NCBI GenBank assembly: GCA_963726455.1
Contig: CAVSCK010000005.1
Span: 320,001 to 384,000, forward strand
From: an uncultured bacterium
GTDB taxonomy: Bacteria; Zixibacteria; MSB-5A5; CAIYYT01
Direction of reading: 5' to 3'
Length of the DNA stretch: 64,000 bases
In this document: positions 46 to 9,857 of the stretch, one piece after another
Numbering within the stretch: the stretch's first letter is position 1
How the letters are laid out: each line of letters starts with the position of its first letter
Notes under the pieces: model-generated
Told to the model about the DNA's origin: nothing
Seen by the model: the letters and a program-made list of their open reading frames with translations, nothing else
The model's database searches: none
Program-made: the position numbers and the translations under genes

Positions 46-345
46 ATGAGGTGTATGAGACTGGTCGCAGTCCTGTTGGCTGCGCTATTTGTGCTGAGCG
101 CCGTCGGTCCCGTGTTTGCGGGGGATGGTCGCTTTCTTGCCCACATCGAGCAAACTTTTAGAGATCACCCCTGGCAGGATGACAACTCAAAGGACGGCAA
201 GCTCAAGGTGAAACCGTTCACGTTCGTGCTCGGTCCGTGGGTCATTAACATTAACTATTCGTTGAACTTGACCGCGCAGAAGGCGGCGCCGTCCGTCCCG
301 GCCAAAGTTAAACCGACCACAACTAAACTGGAAAAGGCCAAGTAA
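46..345 (+). CDS. Small secreted protein (99 aa), possible signalling pro-peptide
   Basis: AAGGAG at 34-39 then ATG at 46; Sec-type signal peptide MRCMRLVAVLLAALFVLSAVGPVFA; stop lies 1 nt before the next ATG. Confidence 0.8.
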   Translation: MRCMRLVAVLLAALFVLSAVGPVFAGDGRFLAHIEQTFRDHPWQDDNSKDGKLKVKPFTFVLGPWVININYSLNLTAQKAAPSVPAKVKPTTTKLEKAK

Positions 346-346
346 G

Positions 347-2551
347 ATGAGTAAAGCAGTCGCACATAGTACGGTTGCGATACTCGTCGAACTGCGTCAA
401 TACATTGACGACGGTCTCGTTCAGGAAGCTGCCCAGCGGGTAGCCGAACTGGAACAGGCCGGAATCGTCATCGATAGCAAGATTGACAAAGCTCGTTATC
501 TCGCCCTGAAAAGCGAGATACATTACCGTCGAGCCGAATACAGCAAGGCACTGTCCGAGGCACAGGAAGGATTGGCTCTGGTTAAGACAACCGGAGAGAA
601 TACCCTGATTGCCGAGCTACAGTCCACGGCTGCCCAAAGTCTTACGGAATTGGGCAGAATCGGCGAGGCGGAGAAAGTATATCGCGACCTTGTTTCGACC
701 TACCGGCGTCTGGACAACACGGTGGGAATTATCAGAAGTTTGAATCGTCTTTCCCGCGTTTATTTCATCAAGAGCCAATTCGACAAAGCGGTTGAGTGCC
801 TATTGGAGGCAGGCGATTACGCCCGCCAACATGATGACCGCAAGTGGTTGGCTAGAACCAAAGGCAACCTCGGCACCATCCTGAATCTGACTGGGGAATT
901 CCATAACGCTATCGAGTTTCTGAATGATTCGGCGGCGCTGAACAGATCGCTGGATGACCGCCTGAACCTTTGCAGAACACAGCTTTCGCTGTCGTTTGCG
1001 CAGATGCATGTACGTGATTACGCCTCAGCACAGAAGAGTCTGGCGACCGCTTCGGCGCTGATTGACAGCGGCGATTTTATTGCTGAGCGGGTCACCCTCG
1101 ACCAGTATCGTGCGCAACTGGCGCTTTTGAGATCGGATCCCGAAACCGCGTTGACATACGCGCAATCTGGGTTGCAGCGTGCGTGTGATGCTACGCGTGA
1201 GGGCGCCTCAGTCTGCCAACTTGAGCGACTGATCGCCGAGGCCTACTACAAGTCAGGCGATCTTGGGTCGGCGAAGGAATCGGCTCGTGTGGCACTTTCA
1301 CAGGCAGCCAAACTGGATCAGAAGGCCGAAATCGGCGCCTGCCATCGTTTGCTGGCACTCGTGGCTTCCGACGAAAATCGTTGTAGCGACAGCGACAAGA
1401 GCTTTGCTCAGGCAATCGCGCAATTGACGCAATGTGGCGCGCGGTTTGAGCTGGCTCTGACATATCTGGCCTGGTCGCGTCTGACCGCAGATAACAATAC
1501 CGCGTCGGAGTATCGCTATCTGGCTACCGGCATCCTGTCTTCGCTCAAGCTGTACGAGCTCTACTTGCGGCAGCCGCGGGTGAAGAGTTCTCAAGACCGC
1601 GACGAGGTAGCGCTGGTCGGCGAGGATCAGCAATTTCTCGAGCTTGTGCAACAGGCCCAGGTTTGCGCCGACAGCGATATCCCGGTGCTGTTACTCGGTG
1701 AAACGGGAAGCGGTAAAGATCAGTTCGCGCGCTTCGTACACTATCGATCAAAGCGGCGGAAACAAACCCTGGTTCAGGTAAACTGCGCGGCGATTCCGCT
1801 TGAGCTTGCCGAATCAGAACTCTTTGGCTACGAAAAAGGCGCCTTCACCAATGCGTCAGAGTCAAAGACCGGTCTGATCGAGGCAGCGGATGGCGGCACC
1901 TTGTTCCTGAACGAAATCGGTGACCTGCCGTTGAAACTACAGGCCAAGTTGCTGGCGGCATTGGAGGAGAAACGGTTCTTTAAGCTCGGCAGCACGGCCC
2001 CTCGGCGCGTCGACTTCCGTCTGGTAGCAGCGACGAACGTGGATCTGCTGCAAGCGGTGCGCGATGGAAGGTTCCGGTCGGATCTTTACTATCGACTCGC
2101 TGTCATGACGCTGAATGTCCCGAGACTGGCGGATCGTGGCAATGATGCTTTCCGGCTGTTCCGGCATTTCATGGAGCTGGAGCAGATTGAACTCGACAAT
2201 GTCAATCCGGCGATCATTAATTCTTTGCAGCAGACTTGCAGCCGCCATGATTGGCCCGGCAACGTGCGCGAGTTAAAGAATCACGTTGAACTCTTCAGCT
2301 TGACCGAGCGGCGTGATCCCGAACGTATTTGCCGCCGTCTGATCGCCAAGTTGACCCCAAAGGAAGCTGCCGTCGTCCAACCGGCAACGCAACTGACTTT
2401 GACCGAGGAGTTGGAGCTTCTGGAGAAATCCCGAATCGGCCAAGCCCTTGGCAGTTGCGGTGGAGTGATCCGGCGCGCGGCGAGTTTTCTCGGATTGCCC
2501 GAGGCAACACTGCGGTCAAAGATGAAGAAATATCGGATGAGCGCTGCGTAA
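347..2551 (+). CDS. TPR-domain sigma54-dependent enhancer-binding protein (TPR + AAA+ + Fis-type HTH)
   Basis: About 400 aa of helical TPR-like repeats; Walker A GETGSGKD, ESELFGYEKGAFTNA, GGTLFLNEIG, GRFRSDLYYRL, WPGNVRELKN; C-terminal HTH AASFLGLPEATLRSKMKKY. Confidence 0.95.
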   Translation: MSKAVAHSTVAILVELRQYIDDGLVQEAAQRVAELEQAGIVIDSKIDKARYLALKSEIHYRRAEYSKALSEAQEGLALVKTTGENTLIAELQSTAAQSLTELGRIGEAEKVYRDLVSTYRRLDNTVGIIRSLNRLSRVYFIKSQFDKAVECLLEAGDYARQHDDRKWLARTKGNLGTILNLTGEFHNAIEFLNDSAALNRSLDDRLNLCRTQLSLSFAQMHVRDYASAQKSLATASALIDSGDFIAERVTLDQYRAQLALLRSDPETALTYAQSGLQRACDATREGASVCQLERLIAEAYYKSGDLGSAKESARVALSQAAKLDQKAEIGACHRLLALVASDENRCSDSDKSFAQAIAQLTQCGARFELALTYLAWSRLTADNNTASEYRYLATGILSSLKLYELYLRQPRVKSSQDRDEVALVGEDQQFLELVQQAQVCADSDIPVLLLGETGSGKDQFARFVHYRSKRRKQTLVQVNCAAIPLELAESELFGYEKGAFTNASESKTGLIEAADGGTLFLNEIGDLPLKLQAKLLAALEEKRFFKLGSTAPRRVDFRLVAATNVDLLQAVRDGRFRSDLYYRLAVMTLNVPRLADRGNDAFRLFRHFMELEQIELDNVNPAIINSLQQTCSRHDWPGNVRELKNHVELFSLTERRDPERICRRLIAKLTPKEAAVVQPATQLTLTEELELLEKSRIGQALGSCGGVIRRAASFLGLPEATLRSKMKKYRMSAA

Positions 2552-2662
2552 CTATTCGCGTAGTGCGCGCGAACTATCGCGATTGGCGTAAGCTCCTGAA
2601 AAATCAGGAGCTTACGCAATCAAAAGCCGGTTCGCGATCAAATCGGCGCGCGAAATTCCGCG
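2546..2662. promoter_or_regulatory. Candidate upstream activator boxes (CGCG-N6-CGCG) flanking a long inverted repeat
   Basis: CGCGAACTATCGCG at 2568-2581 and CGCGAAATTCCGCG at 2649-2662, a related copy at 2546-2560, and a perfect 14-bp inverted repeat at 2586-2617. Confidence 0.45.
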
Positions 2663-2793
2663 CAAGAAAAGACAGGTGCGTTGATTTTCTGGACTCATTA
2701 ATCAAAAGGGGGCTTGCACCTCTCTTTTCTAACCCAACTTGTTACAACTGATTAAGTCCTATCCCCCAATCCAGCACGACATTCAGGTATTTC

Positions 2794-2810
2794 TTGGCAG
2801 AGCGGTTGCT
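2794..2810 (+). promoter_or_regulatory. Sigma54 (-24/-12) promoter
   Basis: TTGGCAGAGCGGTTGCT matches YTGGCACGRNNNTTGCW at all but two positions, with exact GG-N10-GC spacing; lies just downstream of an EBP gene. Confidence 0.8.
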
Positions 2811-2820
2811 TTACGTCTAT

Positions 2821-2937
2821 GCGTCGTGATAAGTAACGACAGCTCCAACACGTTTGGGATGGTACCTTTCTTCGGGAGCGAGGGTTGAGGGGATGTCGAA
2901 TCCGCCTGGTTATGCTCGGCCAGGCGGATTCAAATTT
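2821..2937 (+). ncRNA. Candidate sigma54-dependent small RNA
   Basis: Begins at the predicted +1; 5' hairpin (2823-2840), cUUCGg tetraloop (2870-2875), 12-bp stem (2898-2909/2920-2931); no + strand ORF of normal size before the convergent gene. Confidence 0.55.
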
Positions 2938-2997
2938 CGGGTAGGTCAAGAGAACTGATATCTTAATTCGCCCACTTCTCGATTACGTTCGCTTCAG

Positions 2998-3030
2998 GAA
3001 GCCCGGCCGCCAAATCGGCGGCCGGGTTTC
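2998..3030. terminator. GC-rich hairpin between convergent units
   Basis: GAAGCCCGGCCGCC-AAATC-GGCGGCCGGGTTTC. Confidence 0.75.
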
Positions 3031-3054
3031 TGTATGATTGGCAGAAAACGATCG

Positions 3055-5736
3055 TCAGATCTTGAGATTGATGCTGGCGGAAAGTGCGGCGTTAATGCGC
3101 GCCAGCGAGTCCTCAAGGTGTCCGCGCGTTATCGTGTCGAGCGTTCCGCTGGTGAGTGCATTGCTGATGGCGCCCTTCAGCGTGCGCAGGTCGACTCGAG
3201 CGAGTGTTTTGGCATCCTCAGGGACAGGTAGTTGCGTATTGGTCACCATGTCAACGAGAATGTCCAGATGGGCACGCTGCAGATTGCGGCGCATGCTGTT
3301 GACGTTCTTGCCGGCACTGACCTCCGACCAGACTGCGCGCCTGACGTCCTGAAACACATCGGTCATGGTATACACATCCTGGCCCTTGCCGTAGCGCATT
3401 TCGATATCGACCAGACGGGCAAGCGTGATCGGATTGTAGATGTGGTTGAAAGGCGTCCGCTGTACGAGCAATGCCTGGTCATGCAACGGGTAGTCGATCC
3501 TGAGAGTAGTCCAGGCCGAACCCATGAAATCGGAGTTCTTCTCGTTCTGCAGTTTGTTCAGAAACTCAGGAGAAAACTTGAATGCATCGGCTGACCAGAT
3601 GTTGTCGATAATAAACTTCATCGCCTCGCGCTGTTTGGCGGCCGGTACCGGCAAAAACGGCGATCTGCCATTCGGGTCACCGACATGGTCGCGGAAGTTT
3701 TGGATGCCGCCGATGAAGCGGGCAACGTTGTTCGCCGACAGCGAGAAACTGCTCCAGCCATAGGCAAATACCGTCCGCAGTTTGCGATAGTTCTGCCCCG
3801 GCTTTTCGTAATCCTTCTCAATCTTCGACCACAGCTCTTTGGAAAGGTCGACGCGACGTTGCCAGAATTGCAGCGGGTCGGCCGCCAAGTCGCCTTGAGT
3901 TACGTACGGGTCGATTGCGCGCGAACTGTTTCCGAAACAATCCTCGTCGGTGCCGTAGGCCAGCAGCGGTTCGGCAACGCGGGACGCGATCTTTTCCAAA
4001 CCGGCCTTCTCCGCCGGTGGATTGGCGGCGTCAAACGGCGTGTAACCATACTGGATTGTCCAGACGTCCCAGGGTCCAACCTCGGTGTTAAAGAAATCGG
4101 ACTGTGGCTTGCCGGCAGCCGCAATGTTCGGCGGCGTGTATTCCATCACCGTATTGACCACACCATTCTTGGTGACAAATGCGGGGTCGTCCAATTGCAC
4201 CTCGGTATAGACCGTCGACGCTTTGAAATTGTGCCGCAGTCCCAATGTGTGACCAACTTCATGGCAGATCATGTCGTGCAAGTACTGTTTGACATACTTC
4301 TGGGTGATGTCCGACTTGCCTTCCAGCGAGCTGCGCGCTTGCAGGAAAGCGAGCCCTGCTGCTGCCGATTTTGAGGTTTCTTCGGCGTAGTCGCAGACCT
4401 TCTCCCAATTGAAATTGCCGCCGGGAAGATCATTGATGCTGATCTTCTGAGTGCTCTGCTCGTTGGCGCTGGTGTTGCCAACCGGTTCGAGGAAGTTATC
4501 AGCGTAAGCGAAGATATTACGCAGCGTGTTGGCAACGACCATGATATCGGCGTCATAAATTTGACCGGTATACGGATTGACCCGCGACGGACCGACAGCG
4601 CCGTAAGTCTGCGCCGGCCAGATGCACCAGCGGATCACATTAAAGCGAACGTCTGCCGGATCCCAATCGGCGGTATCCGGCATCTCTTTGACGACAATCG
4701 CGTTCTTGAATCCGGCCGCTTCAAAGGCCTTATTCCAGGCCAGCACTCCTTCACGCAAGGCGTCGCGATATTCAACCGGCGTCGTGTTCTCAAGCCAGAA
4801 AACTATCGGTTCCTTCGGCTCGCTGAGAGCCGCTGCCGGATCCTGTTTTTCCAGATTCCAGTGATTGATGTAACGAACGTACGGCGTTTCAGTCGCAAGA
4901 TCGGAATAGTCCTGATAAATCGTCTGGAAAAAGCCGATCCGGTCATCCGCGGCGCGCGGATGGAAATCTCCCTGCGGTAATGCCGAAAGCGAGTAGTGAT
5001 AGGTCAGGAAGAAGCTGTACGGCGACGTCAGCGTAATGCCGCCCGCCGGCTTGTCGGAATGGTAATGCAGAACCACATCAATTTCGCTGTTCAGGGGAAA
5101 CGATTTGACAGTCCCAAAATTGGAGTTGTCCTTGTCGAATCGGAATCCCGTTTTGCCTTCGCTCCCCAGGAAATAACCAATGTTCTCGACGTCGGTGACC
5201 AGGATACTTGACGGGTCGATCAGAATTGCGCCCGAGGAATCAGGAGTGGACAGTACTACCGTGCTGCCGAGCAATCCTTGCGAAATTGAACGCGCCAGCG
5301 ATTTCGACAGTTGGGCCGTCGTGTCGGCGCGCAGACGCGCATTAGTCTGCAGAAACTGAATCTTCTTTCCGACCTGTTTGAGCTCAATCAGAAATTCATC
5401 CCGCATGACGGCGCCTTCTTGAAAAGTGCCGTCACCGGCGGTGCGCGTGATACCGCACATATACTTGGTGCCAAACTGGCTTGGCTTGACTGCCATCAGC
5501 ACCTGCAGGTCTTTCTTGTTCACATAGAAATCGAACAGACCGGGTACTTTGTCGAAGCCCTTGATCACTTCGGCAAACGGTTTCTCGGTGTCTTTCTTGC
5601 CGGCGGACGCAGCCGCGCCGACTTTCTGTTTCTTCTCTTTCTGCTTTTCCCAGTATCCCATGGCTTGAGAATTCGCAACCAGGAATAGAGAAATACCGAA
5701 TGCGAGAAGCGTCAACGTTAGCGTTAGACGACGCAT
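3055..5736 (-). CDS. Secreted zinc-dependent metalloprotease (metzincin; DUF5117/DUF4953 type)
   Basis: Signal peptide; HEVGHTLGLRHNF zinc motif; Met-turn VMEY; family motifs DDRIGFF, WNKAFEAAGF and VNPYTGQIYDADI. Confidence 0.92.
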   Translation of the reverse strand: MRRLTLTLTLLAFGISLFLVANSQAMGYWEKQKEKKQKVGAAASAGKKDTEKPFAEVIKGFDKVPGLFDFYVNKKDLQVLMAVKPSQFGTKYMCGITRTAGDGTFQEGAVMRDEFLIELKQVGKKIQFLQTNARLRADTTAQLSKSLARSISQGLLGSTVVLSTPDSSGAILIDPSSILVTDVENIGYFLGSEGKTGFRFDKDNSNFGTVKSFPLNSEIDVVLHYHSDKPAGGITLTSPYSFFLTYHYSLSALPQGDFHPRAADDRIGFFQTIYQDYSDLATETPYVRYINHWNLEKQDPAAALSEPKEPIVFWLENTTPVEYRDALREGVLAWNKAFEAAGFKNAIVVKEMPDTADWDPADVRFNVIRWCIWPAQTYGAVGPSRVNPYTGQIYDADIMVVANTLRNIFAYADNFLEPVGNTSANEQSTQKISINDLPGGNFNWEKVCDYAEETSKSAAAGLAFLQARSSLEGKSDITQKYVKQYLHDMICHEVGHTLGLRHNFKASTVYTEVQLDDPAFVTKNGVVNTVMEYTPPNIAAAGKPQSDFFNTEVGPWDVWTIQYGYTPFDAANPPAEKAGLEKIASRVAEPLLAYGTDEDCFGNSSRAIDPYVTQGDLAADPLQFWQRRVDLSKELWSKIEKDYEKPGQNYRKLRTVFAYGWSSFSLSANNVARFIGGIQNFRDHVGDPNGRSPFLPVPAAKQREAMKFIIDNIWSADAFKFSPEFLNKLQNEKNSDFMGSAWTTLRIDYPLHDQALLVQRTPFNHIYNPITLARLVDIEMRYGKGQDVYTMTDVFQDVRRAVWSEVSAGKNVNSMRRNLQRAHLDILVDMVTNTQLPVPEDAKTLARVDLRTLKGAISNALTSGTLDTITRGHLEDSLARINAALSASINLKI

Positions 5737-6734: not shown

Positions 6735-9700
6735 TTAGAATTCTGCGCCTAAGCTGAAATAGTGGTGCGGCCCGGTCGTTCTTGTAAGGTCCCAGCCCCA
6801 ACCAAGATCGTAGCGCAGCAGGAACAGACCCAGGTTCACGCGCGCGCCAAGGCCAAACCCGCTCTTAATGCCGAGCAGGTGGGTGTGGCCACCTTCTGAA
6901 GTTGCGCCTTTAAATGCAGTATTCTCGCTCCAGGCAGCGCCGGCGTCGTAGAAAACTGCGCCCGTGAGTTGCTGCAACGTCAGTGGCAGCGGGAAACCGA
7001 GCGCCAGATACTCGATAAACGGGTAACGGAACTCAAGATTCACAACACTGTACTTGGAACCCTGGAATTGGAAATAATCGTATCCGCGTAACGGGGTGAT
7101 GATCTTGGAAAAGTAGAAACCCTGCACGGTGTAGACGTCGTTATTTGTCTCAGTCGAGCCGATGTAATTGGTCGTTCCACCCAGATAATATGTCTTCCTG
7201 TTGGAGCCGAACGACGCGCCCGCGGCCGCACGGAAGGCGACCGAGTAAAGCCCTCCGATGTGCCAGTACTTGCGATAGTCCCCTTCCATAGCCCAGTAAT
7301 CACGAGACCTGCCGCCGATCGGTATGGTTCTCTCCAGCGTCAGCTTCCAGCGATTTCCGTTGAGAGGTCCCGTCGGCCCCCACAGCACGGTGTCGTCGAT
7401 CAGCGATAGGGCGCCAGTGGTAGCATCGTCACTGGAGTTGTCATACGGCGGATCGTAATAAGTGCGATCAATATATACCTGCGAGAAATCCAACTGCAGC
7501 CGTTTGTACATACTGAATGGATAGGATGTCGTCGCCAGCGCGCCGTACGTCCGATCCGAGAAAAGCCGGTTAGTCGGGTCAATGAAGTAGTTCTTGTTAT
7601 GGAAAATGCCGAAACCGAAATCAGTCCGGTAAGTGTTGTTCAAATAGATTAACTGCAAGTTCGACTGGCTCAGCGAATTTACCAGATCGGTGGAGATGAA
7701 GAACTGATGATTACCGAGGAAATCGCTGACCACCACGAATGACTGCCCCCGCAAACCGTAGAACGGATCGTAAGAAAGCCCGCCGGAGATGTAGTCGGGA
7801 GAGAACTTCGCTTTATACTTCTTGATCTTGAATTCACCGGTCGGGAGTTTGCGATAGAGCGTGTCACGCCCGTCTTCCTCGCGTTCGAGCGCCGAATACT
7901 TGAGCGTGTCAGGGGATTCCAGCGGACCGTGAGAATGCTCACCCGGTGGCGGTGTAAACACGTAGTCTGGATATTCTTCCTTCGGCTCCGGAAATTCCTT
8001 CTTCTCCTTATCGTTCAACGTCGAATCGGAAGAGTCGGCAGGCGTATCCATCTTGACAAATTCCGCGACCATTTCACCGGCGGCAAACTTCGTCTTGACC
8101 AGCGGCGCACCATCTTTGGTAACCGGCTTGATTTCCTTCATCAGGTAAATGTCGAATCCGCCCTTGAAGAACGCGGAGAACGCAATCTGATCACCGCTCG
8201 GCGACCATGACGGCGAACTCACGCCCGACAGGACATTGGTGACCGCAAACGGTACCGAGCCGTTGTTCAATTCCTTGACGTACAGGTTGTCAATGCCGTT
8301 CGTGTTGGCGACAAAGCAAATCTTGTCGGCCTTCGGTGACCACGTCGGATAGCGGCAAATGTCACCCTGCCGAGTGACAGTGTCGATAACGCCACTGGCG
8401 ATATCCATGACAAATATATTGTAGGTGCCATACCTGTAATGTCCCGCTTGCTCCGCCGATGAGGGGCGGTCAGACGAGAACGCAATTTTCGAACCATCGG
8501 GAGAGTAGCTGGCATCCTTGTCATCATAAAGATCGTCCGTCAATTGTCTCAGTTCCTTGGTCTTGGGATTGACGGTAAAAATATCACTCTGGCCATTTCT
8601 CACTGCCGAGAAGGCGATGTCCCCGTTCTTACCCCAACTGGGTGACTGGATGACGCCGAAACCCTCGCGTATCCGGTCGGAAATTCTCTTATGCTTGACG
8701 TCGTAAATCATCAGCGCGTCTTTGCCTTCAGATTTGGCGACGAATACCAAATCCTTGCCGTCCGGAGACCAACTCATGCCGGATACATAGGAATGCAACG
8801 ACTCCAAATCGCCGGAGCGCTCACCCTTGACCAGTCGTTCGAGAATCTTGCCGTCGATGGCGCTGACCAGATAAATTTCCGTGTAATCCTTCCGATCGGA
8901 GAAGATCGCAATCTTGTCGCCTTGTGGCGAGAAGACCGGCTTTTCGTTGAAGTTGGAATGATCCTTTTCGTGGTTGGTCAGTTGCTTGCCGATATCGGCC
9001 GGTTCCGAACGAATGGCAATCTCCGGCCAGTAGACCTTCTTCAAATACTTCGTGAATTTTTCAAAGAATTCGTCTTCGTTCAGCCCGATCGCGCCCTTCA
9101 TTGCGCGGGACATGGACAGAGTGCGCTTGCCGCGATTGATCAAATCGGGAATTCGTTCTGGGCCGTAGGCCTCGGAGAGATACTTGAGCGCCGCCTGTCC
9201 TTCTTTGTAGGCGAGGAAGCCGCCAACGTATTCCAGCGGCTGCAAATAGCCGTGAATTGTTGCGTCTCGCACAACCATGTCGGCGAAATAATCCCAGCCG
9301 AAGCGGGACGAGTATTCCGCATATCCCTCGGCGAACCAGAGCGGCAGGCGAAAGAGATATTGGCGCGAAGCCAGCGAGCCAAAGAAGCTGCCGTAAATCA
9401 TGTCGTAGGTCACGGCGTGCGTCAGCTCGTGATGCAGCACGTGCCGGAAATCTTCGTAGGAACCGTCGTAGGGAACGACAATTCGGTTCTTGAATGATTC
9501 CGTAAAACCGCCGACTGCTTCCGGCAGAAGATCGGGCACCACGTTGGTCTGTTGAAATTCGTTCGGCGAATTGTAGATCAATACCGGCACCCGGGTGCGC
9601 AATTTGTAGTCGAGTTGCTTGGAGATATAGACGTACGCCGACTCCATCTCCGCAATCGCATATTTCGCTAAATCATATTCGCCGTCGTAGTAGTAGACGT

Positions 9701-9857
9701 CAAAGTTCGGAGACTGGATGTAGTCCCAGGCAAAGCGCTTGTATTGCACCTTGTTCTTGCCGAAAGACTCATCCTGCGCATAACTCGAGGCAGCCAGCGT
9801 CAGCAGCGCAGTGGCGAGAAATATCAGGGTTGTTCGATTCATGTACTTTATACCCAT
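6735..9857 (-). CDS. Omp85/BamA-family outer-membrane protein with N-terminal gluzincin-like peptidase domain and TolB/PD40 beta-propeller
   Basis: Signal peptide (start possibly 9842); HELTH plus WFAEGYAEY; repeated P(S/T)WSPxG units; LRGY loop motif; C-terminal YFSLGAEF beta-signal. Confidence 0.9.
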   Translation of the reverse strand: MGIKYMNRTTLIFLATALLTLAASSYAQDESFGKNKVQYKRFAWDYIQSPNFDVYYYDGEYDLAKYAIAEMESAYVYISKQLDYKLRTRVPVLIYNSPNEFQQTNVVPDLLPEAVGGFTESFKNRIVVPYDGSYEDFRHVLHHELTHAVTYDMIYGSFFGSLASRQYLFRLPLWFAEGYAEYSSRFGWDYFADMVVRDATIHGYLQPLEYVGGFLAYKEGQAALKYLSEAYGPERIPDLINRGKRTLSMSRAMKGAIGLNEDEFFEKFTKYLKKVYWPEIAIRSEPADIGKQLTNHEKDHSNFNEKPVFSPQGDKIAIFSDRKDYTEIYLVSAIDGKILERLVKGERSGDLESLHSYVSGMSWSPDGKDLVFVAKSEGKDALMIYDVKHKRISDRIREGFGVIQSPSWGKNGDIAFSAVRNGQSDIFTVNPKTKELRQLTDDLYDDKDASYSPDGSKIAFSSDRPSSAEQAGHYRYGTYNIFVMDIASGVIDTVTRQGDICRYPTWSPKADKICFVANTNGIDNLYVKELNNGSVPFAVTNVLSGVSSPSWSPSGDQIAFSAFFKGGFDIYLMKEIKPVTKDGAPLVKTKFAAGEMVAEFVKMDTPADSSDSTLNDKEKKEFPEPKEEYPDYVFTPPPGEHSHGPLESPDTLKYSALEREEDGRDTLYRKLPTGEFKIKKYKAKFSPDYISGGLSYDPFYGLRGQSFVVVSDFLGNHQFFISTDLVNSLSQSNLQLIYLNNTYRTDFGFGIFHNKNYFIDPTNRLFSDRTYGALATTSYPFSMYKRLQLDFSQVYIDRTYYDPPYDNSSDDATTGALSLIDDTVLWGPTGPLNGNRWKLTLERTIPIGGRSRDYWAMEGDYRKYWHIGGLYSVAFRAAAGASFGSNRKTYYLGGTTNYIGSTETNNDVYTVQGFYFSKIITPLRGYDYFQFQGSKYSVVNLEFRYPFIEYLALGFPLPLTLQQLTGAVFYDAGAAWSENTAFKGATSEGGHTHLLGIKSGFGLGARVNLGLFLLRYDLGWGWDLTRTTGPHHYFSLGAEF

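Follow-up and report, generated by a model that had tools for sequence, protein, structure and literature searches.

The stretch of DNA analysed here, called the window below, comprises 64,000 nucleotides from an uncultured bacterium of the phylum Zixibacteria (assembly GCA_963726455.1, contig CAVSCK010000005.1, positions 320,001 to 384,000 of the forward strand); all positions are counted from its first letter. To our knowledge, the phylum has no cultured representative. Close to the beginning of the window lies an intergenic region, 2552-3054, which is free of long open reading frames (ORFs), in keeping with the original prediction, made from the letters alone, that a sigma-54 promoter fires here into a structured stretch with no normal gene. 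The region is flanked by a gene for a protein of 734 amino acids (aa) on the plus strand and by a convergent gene on the minus strand (3055-5736), whose product is a DUF4953 met-zincin according to Pfam. The explanation that best accounts for the whole locus, and to which we assign a probability of roughly 0.6, is that the region carries a stand-alone gene for a regulatory RNA of ~213 nt, which would be read by sigma-54 RNA polymerase, switched by the adjacent activator with its tetratricopeptide repeats (TPR), and act in trans.

The features of the locus are collected in Table 1. The product of the 734-aa gene consists of an N-terminal TPR sensor region, a sigma-54 AAA+ domain and a Fis-type helix-turn-helix (HTH), with no receiver domain found by Pfam; it is likely the activator of the RNA promoter. 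It is preceded by the gene of a small exported protein, the stop codon of which lies 1 nt before the activator start codon.

Table 1. Positions, strands and basis of assignment of the features at the locus
Feature	Position	Strand	Basis
Small exported protein gene, ~100 aa, signal peptide, HPWQDD motif	46..345	+	translation
Enhancer-binding protein, 734 aa	347..2551	+	Pfam: Sigma54_activat 6e-65, TPR_12, AAA_lid_14, HTH_8
Putative upstream activating sequence 1: overlapping palindromes TTCGCG-N7-CGCGAA and CGCGA-N4-TCGCG	2555..2583	.	conserved block in 19 f1 intergenic regions
14-bp hairpin, probable terminator of the activator gene, between both enhancer sites	2586..2617	+	sequence
Putative upstream activating sequence 2: 18-bp palindrome CGCGCGA-N4-CCGCGCA	2647..2664	.	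conserved in the f1 alignment
Sigma-54 promoter TGGCAG-N5-TTGCT; GG 2796-2797 (-24), GC 2808-2809 (-12)	2795..2810	+	motif match, conservation
Small RNA, ~213 nt, both ends predicted	2821..3033	+	promoter geometry (5'), terminator (3')
P1, 5-bp 5' hairpin, GTCGT 2823-2827 / ACGAC 2836-2840	2823..2840	+	95.7% of cells paired, 23 sequences
P2, GCUCC 2842-2846 / GGAGC 2875-2879, closing a 28-nt loop	2842..2879	+	RNAalifold, 96.5% paired
G-rich linker, GGGUUGAGGGG-type	2880..2897	+	conserved in 23/23 family sequences
P3, 12-bp stem, 2898-2909 / 2920-2931	2898..2931	+	100% of cells paired, two compensatory pairs
P4, hairpin, weak in the window genome (one mismatch in five pairs)	2963..2986	+	RNAalifold, 15 full-length sequences
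Intrinsic terminator, G+C-rich hairpin 2997-3011 / 3017-3031 and UUUCUGU tail	2997..3033	+	sequence, fold

Promoter and extent of the RNA unit

The sigma-54 promoter that had been predicted is borne out by an exact match to the -24 and -12 elements. The spacing of GG and GC is that of a sigma-54 promoter, the genome encodes rpoN (Sigma54_DBD at C5:497391-497867) as well as an enhancer-binding protein, and palindromes lie upstream within ~80-250 nt. Loose matches to TGGC-N8-TGC number 21 in the window, with 11.2 ± 3.1 expected, and the match at 2795-2810 is the sole one of them that has both TGGCA and TTGC. From its GC element, transcription is expected to start at ~2821. The motif YGGCA-N6-TTGCT was found 232-303 nt past the activator stop codon in 19/19 loci with downstream sequence in f1, the family of the window genome; the genome G002, in which a contig break leaves the RNA on a different contig, was excluded from this count. 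The promoter motif is also present in 5/5 metagenome loci.

The plus strand of 2821-3036 folds at -97.6 kcal/mol with a z-score of -5.8, none of 200 shuffled sequences being as good, and the minus strand gives a z-score of -3.7. With these values and the conserved stems described below, the proposal of a structured non-coding RNA on the plus strand stands. The extent given for it, 2794-2958, falls short at its end, as the unit continues to the terminator hairpin at 2997-3031. The unit thus has its own promoter and an intrinsic terminator within an intergenic region, and no ORF conserved in length was found among the family sequences on either strand of the RNA region. The RNA is present in a single copy in its own genome, where the remaining BLAST matches are 16-28 nt long.

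An Infernal/Rfam search, proposed earlier as a check, matched the RNA to no family. For window positions 2400-3200 the best match overlapping the RNA had an E-value of 5.3 and 16.5 bits, compared with a gathering score of 55; lower E-values (0.01, 0.04 and 0.28) fell upstream of the RNA, at 2562-2705, and 20 homologous loci gave 0 matches at E<=0.5. The RNA family is undescribed and has no Rfam family, those of Pxr, Qrr, GlmY and CrcZ included. Taken together, it is very probable that 2821-3033 is a real sigma-54-dependent non-coding RNA gene. The transcript being a predicted one, the region might instead be seen as a cis-acting leader or as a chance structure without function; this is rendered extremely improbable by the convergent direction of the next gene (3055-5736), by the terminator that ends the unit, past which the genes differ between relatives, and by the fact that promoter, stems and terminator are kept across the family and the layout across several families.

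Structure and conservation within the family

The secondary structure was predicted with RNAalifold on 20 and on 15 (full-length) sequences, and pairs were counted in 23 distinct family sequences, to which the counts in this section refer; three of these 23 rows came from a pattern that fixed P3 and are not independent evidence for that stem. The elements follow one another in the order P1, P2, G-rich linker, P3, P4 and terminator. The 5' hairpin GTCGT/ACGAC of the original prediction corresponds to P1, which is kept in relatives with one compensatory pair and many U-G/U-A switches. The loop of P2 varies from 28 to 34 nt across the family and contains the pyrimidine-rich tract ACCUUUCUUC at 2864-2873; the 3' arm has the form GGAGY, and the closing pair is G-U in 15/23 and G-C in 6/23 sequences. 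P3 is the 12-bp stem described earlier, which in the window can be extended by G-U pairs, as had been stated, two of them in all; its loop contains GCUCGG, invariant in the 23 sequences. A second pyrimidine-rich loop, at 2969-2980, is found in P4.

Overall, 98.2% of 504 pair cells were paired, compared with 33-47% when the partners were slid. Double changes occur in three pairs, one in P1 and two in P3, and two pairs of the terminator stem have four double changes each. G-U closing pairs, present in 15 sequences at position 2 of P1 and position 1 of P2, fit the plus strand only. These counts lend modest support to a conserved secondary structure with covariation. The cUUCGg tetraloop that had been read at 2870-2875 did not survive the comparison: the letters are present in the window and not conserved, relatives having CUUCAG or CUCGG, and CUUCGG overlaps the 3' arm of P2, where it would compete with the conserved GCUCC/GGAGC helix. 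An alternative long-range helix, GGAGYGA/UCRCUUC, was 87.6% paired with one double change, and 130 of 500 shuffles were as good.

BLAST against 41 genomes detected the RNA region in three other genomes of the same genus with 84-89% identity, the matches starting at 2823, two bases past the predicted start; between the same genomes, the activator protein is 67-68% identical. In f1 as a whole, where full-length activator orthologues exist in 19/20 other genomes, the alignment from the promoter onwards consists of a variable spacer of 10-12 nt, a conserved core of ~120 nt, a more variable 3' part and the terminator. The conserved part is the predicted transcribed region, and the promoter spacer and the 3' flanks diverge. 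A covariance model of this RNA, R1, detected it in 12/12 other f1 genomes of the phylum sample and in its own genome, once each and on the plus strand; the second R1 matches seen in most f1 genomes come from the palindromic P3 stem of that same copy, read on the opposite strand. An exact-pattern scan of the genome contig collection returned 18 loci, of which 17 were duplicate f1 loci and one was a chance match in a coding region, and a scan of metagenomes, with a pattern that fixed P3, returned five loci with three new variants.

The conserved core overlaps a 21-codon ORF with an ATG start at 2893-2958 (MSNPPGYARPGGF...), which had been pointed out together with the GAGGG that does lie 8 nt ahead of the ATG. 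If this ORF were translated through P3, the locus would be a small-protein gene or would specify a dual-function RNA. A frame NPPGxARPGGF with an in-frame start is present in 19/23 sequences, and all three independent substitutions in the P3 stem fall on third codon positions of the ORF, which speaks for a peptide. However, in 4/23 sequences a TAG stands directly before the frame and no start exists, and in 2/23 the frame shifts inside the loop with the hairpin kept. Where a start is present, it lies at -3, -6 or -18, and the products would measure 19 to >72 aa and have unrelated tails. GCU CGG is constant down to the third codon positions, the conserved stretch coincides exactly with the hairpin, and no such ORF exists in the homologues of families f7 and f12 (see below). 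The peptide that had been offered as an alternative is accordingly considered highly unlikely.

The stretch had also been described as GGA-rich and as a possible CsrA/RsmA sponge, the GGA motifs of which would sequester CsrA in loops. GGGA at 2856, 2874 and 2890 and GGA at 2926 are all present, GGGA/GGA occurring five times with two copies of GGGAUG, and the genome, when checked for csrA as had been suggested, was found to encode it. The count is nevertheless at chance level, since five GGA in 213 nt compare with 3.9 ± 1.7 in shuffles, 34% of which reach five. ANGGA is absent in 14/23 family members and occurs once in the other nine, one GGA is inside the P3 stem, and the f7/f12 homologues carry one to three GGA. 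Moreover, csrA is part of a flagellar locus, between flgK and a flagellin gene and with fliW 2.3 kb on, so that a sponge appears very improbable. The corresponding check for hfq was negative: Hfq was not found with PF17209 in the window's own genome, which is rated 100% complete.

The csrA locus is of interest in its own right. The arrangement flgK-csrA-flagellin with fliW ~2.3 kb downstream (G000:C4:300121-305944; L088, L202) is a locus of the FliW-CsrA-flagellin type in Zixibacteria. In Bacillus and Campylobacter, from which this arrangement is known, FliW is the protein that counteracts CsrA.

Probable control by the adjacent activator and the wider module

The first putative upstream activating sequence is situated directly past the activator stop codon, and the second is 148 nt before the promoter and perfect (7-N4-7) in several relatives. 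The palindromes of the window sit at -148 and at -229 to -250; they flank the hairpin that follows the activator gene, which is also seen at the matching place in the f1 alignment. In the window's own genome there are 220 YGGCA-N6-TTGC sites, 13 of which have at least one enhancer-like palindrome (<=3 mismatches, within 300 nt of the promoter site), and the RNA promoter alone among the 220 has three. Six other palindrome sites (four with one mismatch, two with two) have no strict sigma-54 promoter nearby, and two of them have loose GG...GC matches. On both counts the RNA gene looks like the main, and perhaps the only, target of the adjacent activator.

In families f7 and f12 the palindrome differs from that of f1. 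It reads TCGTA-N6-TACGA and lies at about -105 to -116 and -192 to -206; it was found in 13/13 loci of these families, compared with one match in ~25 kb of the remaining locus sequence. Judged from this arrangement of sites, control of the RNA promoter by the adjacent activator is probable.

Some further observations were made on these sites. A block AAAGGGGGCTTGCACCTCTCTT at 2705-2726, past the second enhancer site and upstream of the promoter, is kept in the genus and in genome G005; it folds as a small hairpin, was terminator-like in the scan and might be the site of a bending protein. In relatives from the genus g2 (L046-L050, L052, L054, L058), a long perfect hairpin with a T-run behind it carries the second palindrome at its tip, so that the activator site would overlap a terminator-like structure. 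A second S8 protease gene of the genome is preceded, at a distance of ~60 nt, by an enhancer-like palindrome (G000:C4:784802; one mismatch), with no adjacent sigma-54 promoter found.

Neither the small exported protein nor its equivalents in other loci belong to a Pfam family. An equivalent was detected just upstream of the activator in 17/19 other f1 loci (tblastn, E<=0.003; weak matches, but syntenic), and the equivalent ORFs encode 112-130 aa with an invariant PW within [HD]PW[QGD]. Such an ORF also precedes the activator in f19 (2/2), f5 (3/3) and f7/f12 (6/6 of the loci looked at), and the pair of exported-protein gene and TPR activator gene is thus kept in five Zixibacteria families (f1, f5, f7, f12 and f19). 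The protein encoded in the window also shows a short hydrophobic stretch and a basic tail, and it is translationally coupled to the TPR activator. Farther away, 6735-9857 on the minus strand encodes a 1040-aa protein with Peptidase_MA_2, PD40/beta-propeller repeats and a C-terminal Omp85 barrel, which is an unusual fusion.

Proteins that match the activator over its N-terminal 420 residues were found in 139/151 genomes of the phylum sample, often several in one genome. TPR-type sigma-54 activators are expanded in Zixibacteria; they fall into size classes of ~750 and ~975 aa, and in some families a genome has up to 7-8 N-terminal matches. Among the closest relatives of the activator outside f1, those of f19 (2/2) and f5 (5/5) have a sigma-54 promoter 209-234 nt after the stop codon and, behind it, a strongly terminated RNA of 115-145 nt. 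For f7 (8/8) and f12 (5/5) the promoter is 186-313 nt past the stop and is followed by a terminated RNA of 90-143 nt; these counts, and that for f15, come from 20 fetched homologues of ~750 aa. No promoter was found for the relatives in f15 (0/7), nor in f18 (0/1) and f14 (0/1), for which 240-345 nt of sequence were available; all of these may be paralogues.

A second covariance model, R2, built on the f7/f12 type, found one copy in 52/55 f7, 10/10 f12 and 3/3 f13 genomes and none in f1. Among 21 genomes outside the R2 training set, the RNA was on the strand of the activator in 21/21, 1313-1636 nt past the N-terminal match, as compared by eye from coordinate tables. R2 also matches the f19 RNAs at E 0.003-0.008, and R1 has a weak match in G014 (E 0.005). 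Short motifs are shared between the RNA types, namely a 5' GUC, (A/G)CUCC, a pyrimidine-rich tract (UCCUUUUUUCUCGG in f12, UUCUUUUUCUCGG in the window's genus) and a stem of the CCGCCCG type. All the types are taken here as one syntenic and probably homologous group, in which the homology of the f1 RNA is presumptive, and none of them matches an Rfam family. Within f1, the weak alignments of R2 (E 0.06-0.1; L057 4114-4202, L059 4145-4233) cover the 3' domain, made up of P4 and terminator, and not the 5' core, which suggests that the 5' 120 nt could be an addition specific to f1.

Proposed mode of action and comparison with known systems

According to the mechanism proposed here, sigma-54 RNA polymerase would bind TGGCAG-N5-TTGCT at 2795-2810, and the TPR activator (347-2551) would bind the palindromes at 2555-2583 and 2647-2664 and open the promoter upon triggering of its TPR sensor. 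The small exported protein (46-345), co-transcribed with the activator, may be part of this input. The RNA made in this way would fold into P1-P4, end at the intrinsic terminator and act in trans. The preferred mode of action is Hfq-independent base pairing, in which the partners of the anti-Shine-Dalgarno-like loops at 2864-2873 and 2969-2980 would be purine-rich ribosome-binding regions in target mRNAs. These pyrimidine-rich loops, which we take to resemble the 3' end of 16S rRNA, would have something to pair with, as strong AAGGAG Shine-Dalgarno sequences are present in the genomes concerned. The base-pairing small RNA (sRNA) of the original prediction is plausible as far as the conserved pyrimidine-rich loops go, and is left without a target in the scans described below. 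On balance, a base-pairing regulator rather than a protein-binding one is a tentative choice, with the chances slightly below even.

As no target emerged, a protein-binding role stays a serious rival, if clearly the less likely one. The RNA would then be a decoy that titrates an RNA-binding protein through invariant unpaired motifs, for which GCUCCAA, the G-rich linker and the P3 loop GCUCGG are candidates. Several unpaired motifs are indeed invariant over the 23 sequences with varying neighbouring positions, which is typical of protein or RNA recognition sites, and the scan of translation starts gave no signal of an mRNA target. Known activator-adjacent sigma-54 RNAs also include decoys, namely CrcZ and GlmY. 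Speaking against a decoy, the analysis brought up no candidate protein, each motif is present a single time, in contrast to the repeats of known sponges, and Hfq was not found in the window's own genome with PF17209.

Returning to base pairing in trans as the preferred reading, a number of results weigh against it or against parts of it. Among 5845 putative translation-start regions, the real loop formed 207 duplexes at <= -22 kcal/mol compared with 315-595 for five shuffles, in a scan that ignored accessibility and for which starts were guessed. Pairing with the two mRNAs of the module itself gave z-scores from -2.5 to +1.3 in six genomes, with no consistent site. One candidate target, an S8 protease mRNA to which the P2 loop is 86-90% complementary over 30-34 nt in the 5' coding part in G001 and G002 (L038 G001:C205, L039 G002:C408), was dropped as chance: the complementarity is absent in the orthologue of the window's own genome (63% identical), the RNA of G001 itself differs in that loop, and the complementarity is likewise absent with the RNAs of the G001 and G002 genomes themselves. 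A target with conserved complementarity, as is expected of a trans-acting sRNA, was thus not found in these scans, which lowers the base-pairing claim only. Covariation is thin, with three double-change pairs, few independent events and 8/12 P3 pairs that never vary. The 3' hairpin at 2997-3031 was missing from the output of a consensus terminator scan, a check of public sequencing runs turned up no RNA run containing the stretch, the existence of the transcript and both its ends are deduced from sequence, and binding of the activator to the palindromes is a prediction as well. Finally, the matches of R2 in f1 loci have E 0.05-5 and lie mostly on terminators, R1 has no real match outside f1 (a match there lies inside a 600-aa ORF), and it is from synteny and a few short motifs in common that the f1 RNA is presumed to be homologous to the shorter ones.

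The locus might also be a three-part signalling cassette conserved across Zixibacteria, in which the exported protein with its invariant HPW-type motif, or a fragment of it, would be sensed by the cytoplasmic TPR domain and the RNA gene would be the sole promoter target of the activator. Although doubtful, such a cassette would, if true, constitute a peptide- or protein-sensing circuit, possibly acting from cell to cell, and would bring together, in an uncultured phylum, the logic of two systems, the RRNPP receptors of Bacillota and LuxO-Qrr of Vibrio.

The layout in which a sigma-54 sRNA adjoins its activator gene is already known from other bacteria. In Pseudomonas, CrcZ is a sigma-54 sRNA encoded right after the gene of the NtrC-type activator, cbrB. 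CrcZ sequesters Hfq/Crc through repeated A-rich motifs, whereas the present RNA has no repeated motifs and Hfq was not found. The Pxr/Nla19 system of M. xanthus is similar in that an activator gene is followed by a 262-nt intergenic region with a predicted sigma-54 promoter and then by a multi-stem-loop sRNA of ~108 nt, a synteny conserved across genera (PMC5568312). Unlike the present activator, with its TPR sensor and without a receiver, Nla19 is a two-component response regulator; Pxr furthermore belongs to a different phylum, the f1 RNA is about twice as long, and it has no Rfam match.

In Enterobacteriaceae, the sigma-54 promoters of the sRNAs GlmY and GlmZ need the activator GlrR/QseF at three conserved upstream sites (PMC3045617), to which the three enhancer-like palindromes at the present RNA promoter may be compared; glmY also adjoins the regulator operon (PMC8745638). 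GlrR is, however, a response regulator, GlmY is a decoy for RapZ, and there is no sequence relation. In Vibrio quorum sensing, the sigma-54 activator LuxO likewise has one or more small RNAs, Qrr, as its output. The Qrr RNAs are Hfq-dependent, ~100 nt long and often present in several copies, in contrast to the present RNA, which is single copy in a genome where Hfq was not found and is tied to another kind of sensor. The upstream pair recalls RRNPP-like sensing, a predicted cytoplasmic TPR receptor being encoded beside a small exported-protein gene here too.

A search of the literature on Zixibacteria for small or noncoding RNA, in which supplements were outside the scope, found no described regulatory RNA for the phylum. 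Relative to the systems above, what sets this locus apart is the TPR sensor in place of a receiver, the co-transcribed exported protein, the new RNA family and the uncultured phylum. The locus combines, within 3 kb, a sensor protein, enhancer sites, a sigma-54 promoter and an RNA as output in a compact and testable circuit, which could be rebuilt in a laboratory host with a reporter. Most genomes of the phylum sample have kept this circuit, the enhancer sequences differing from lineage to lineage. The RNA families of models R1 and R2 are candidates for RNA family databases, and to the few cases of sigma-54 activators with a small RNA as their main output the circuit adds one that is phylum-wide.

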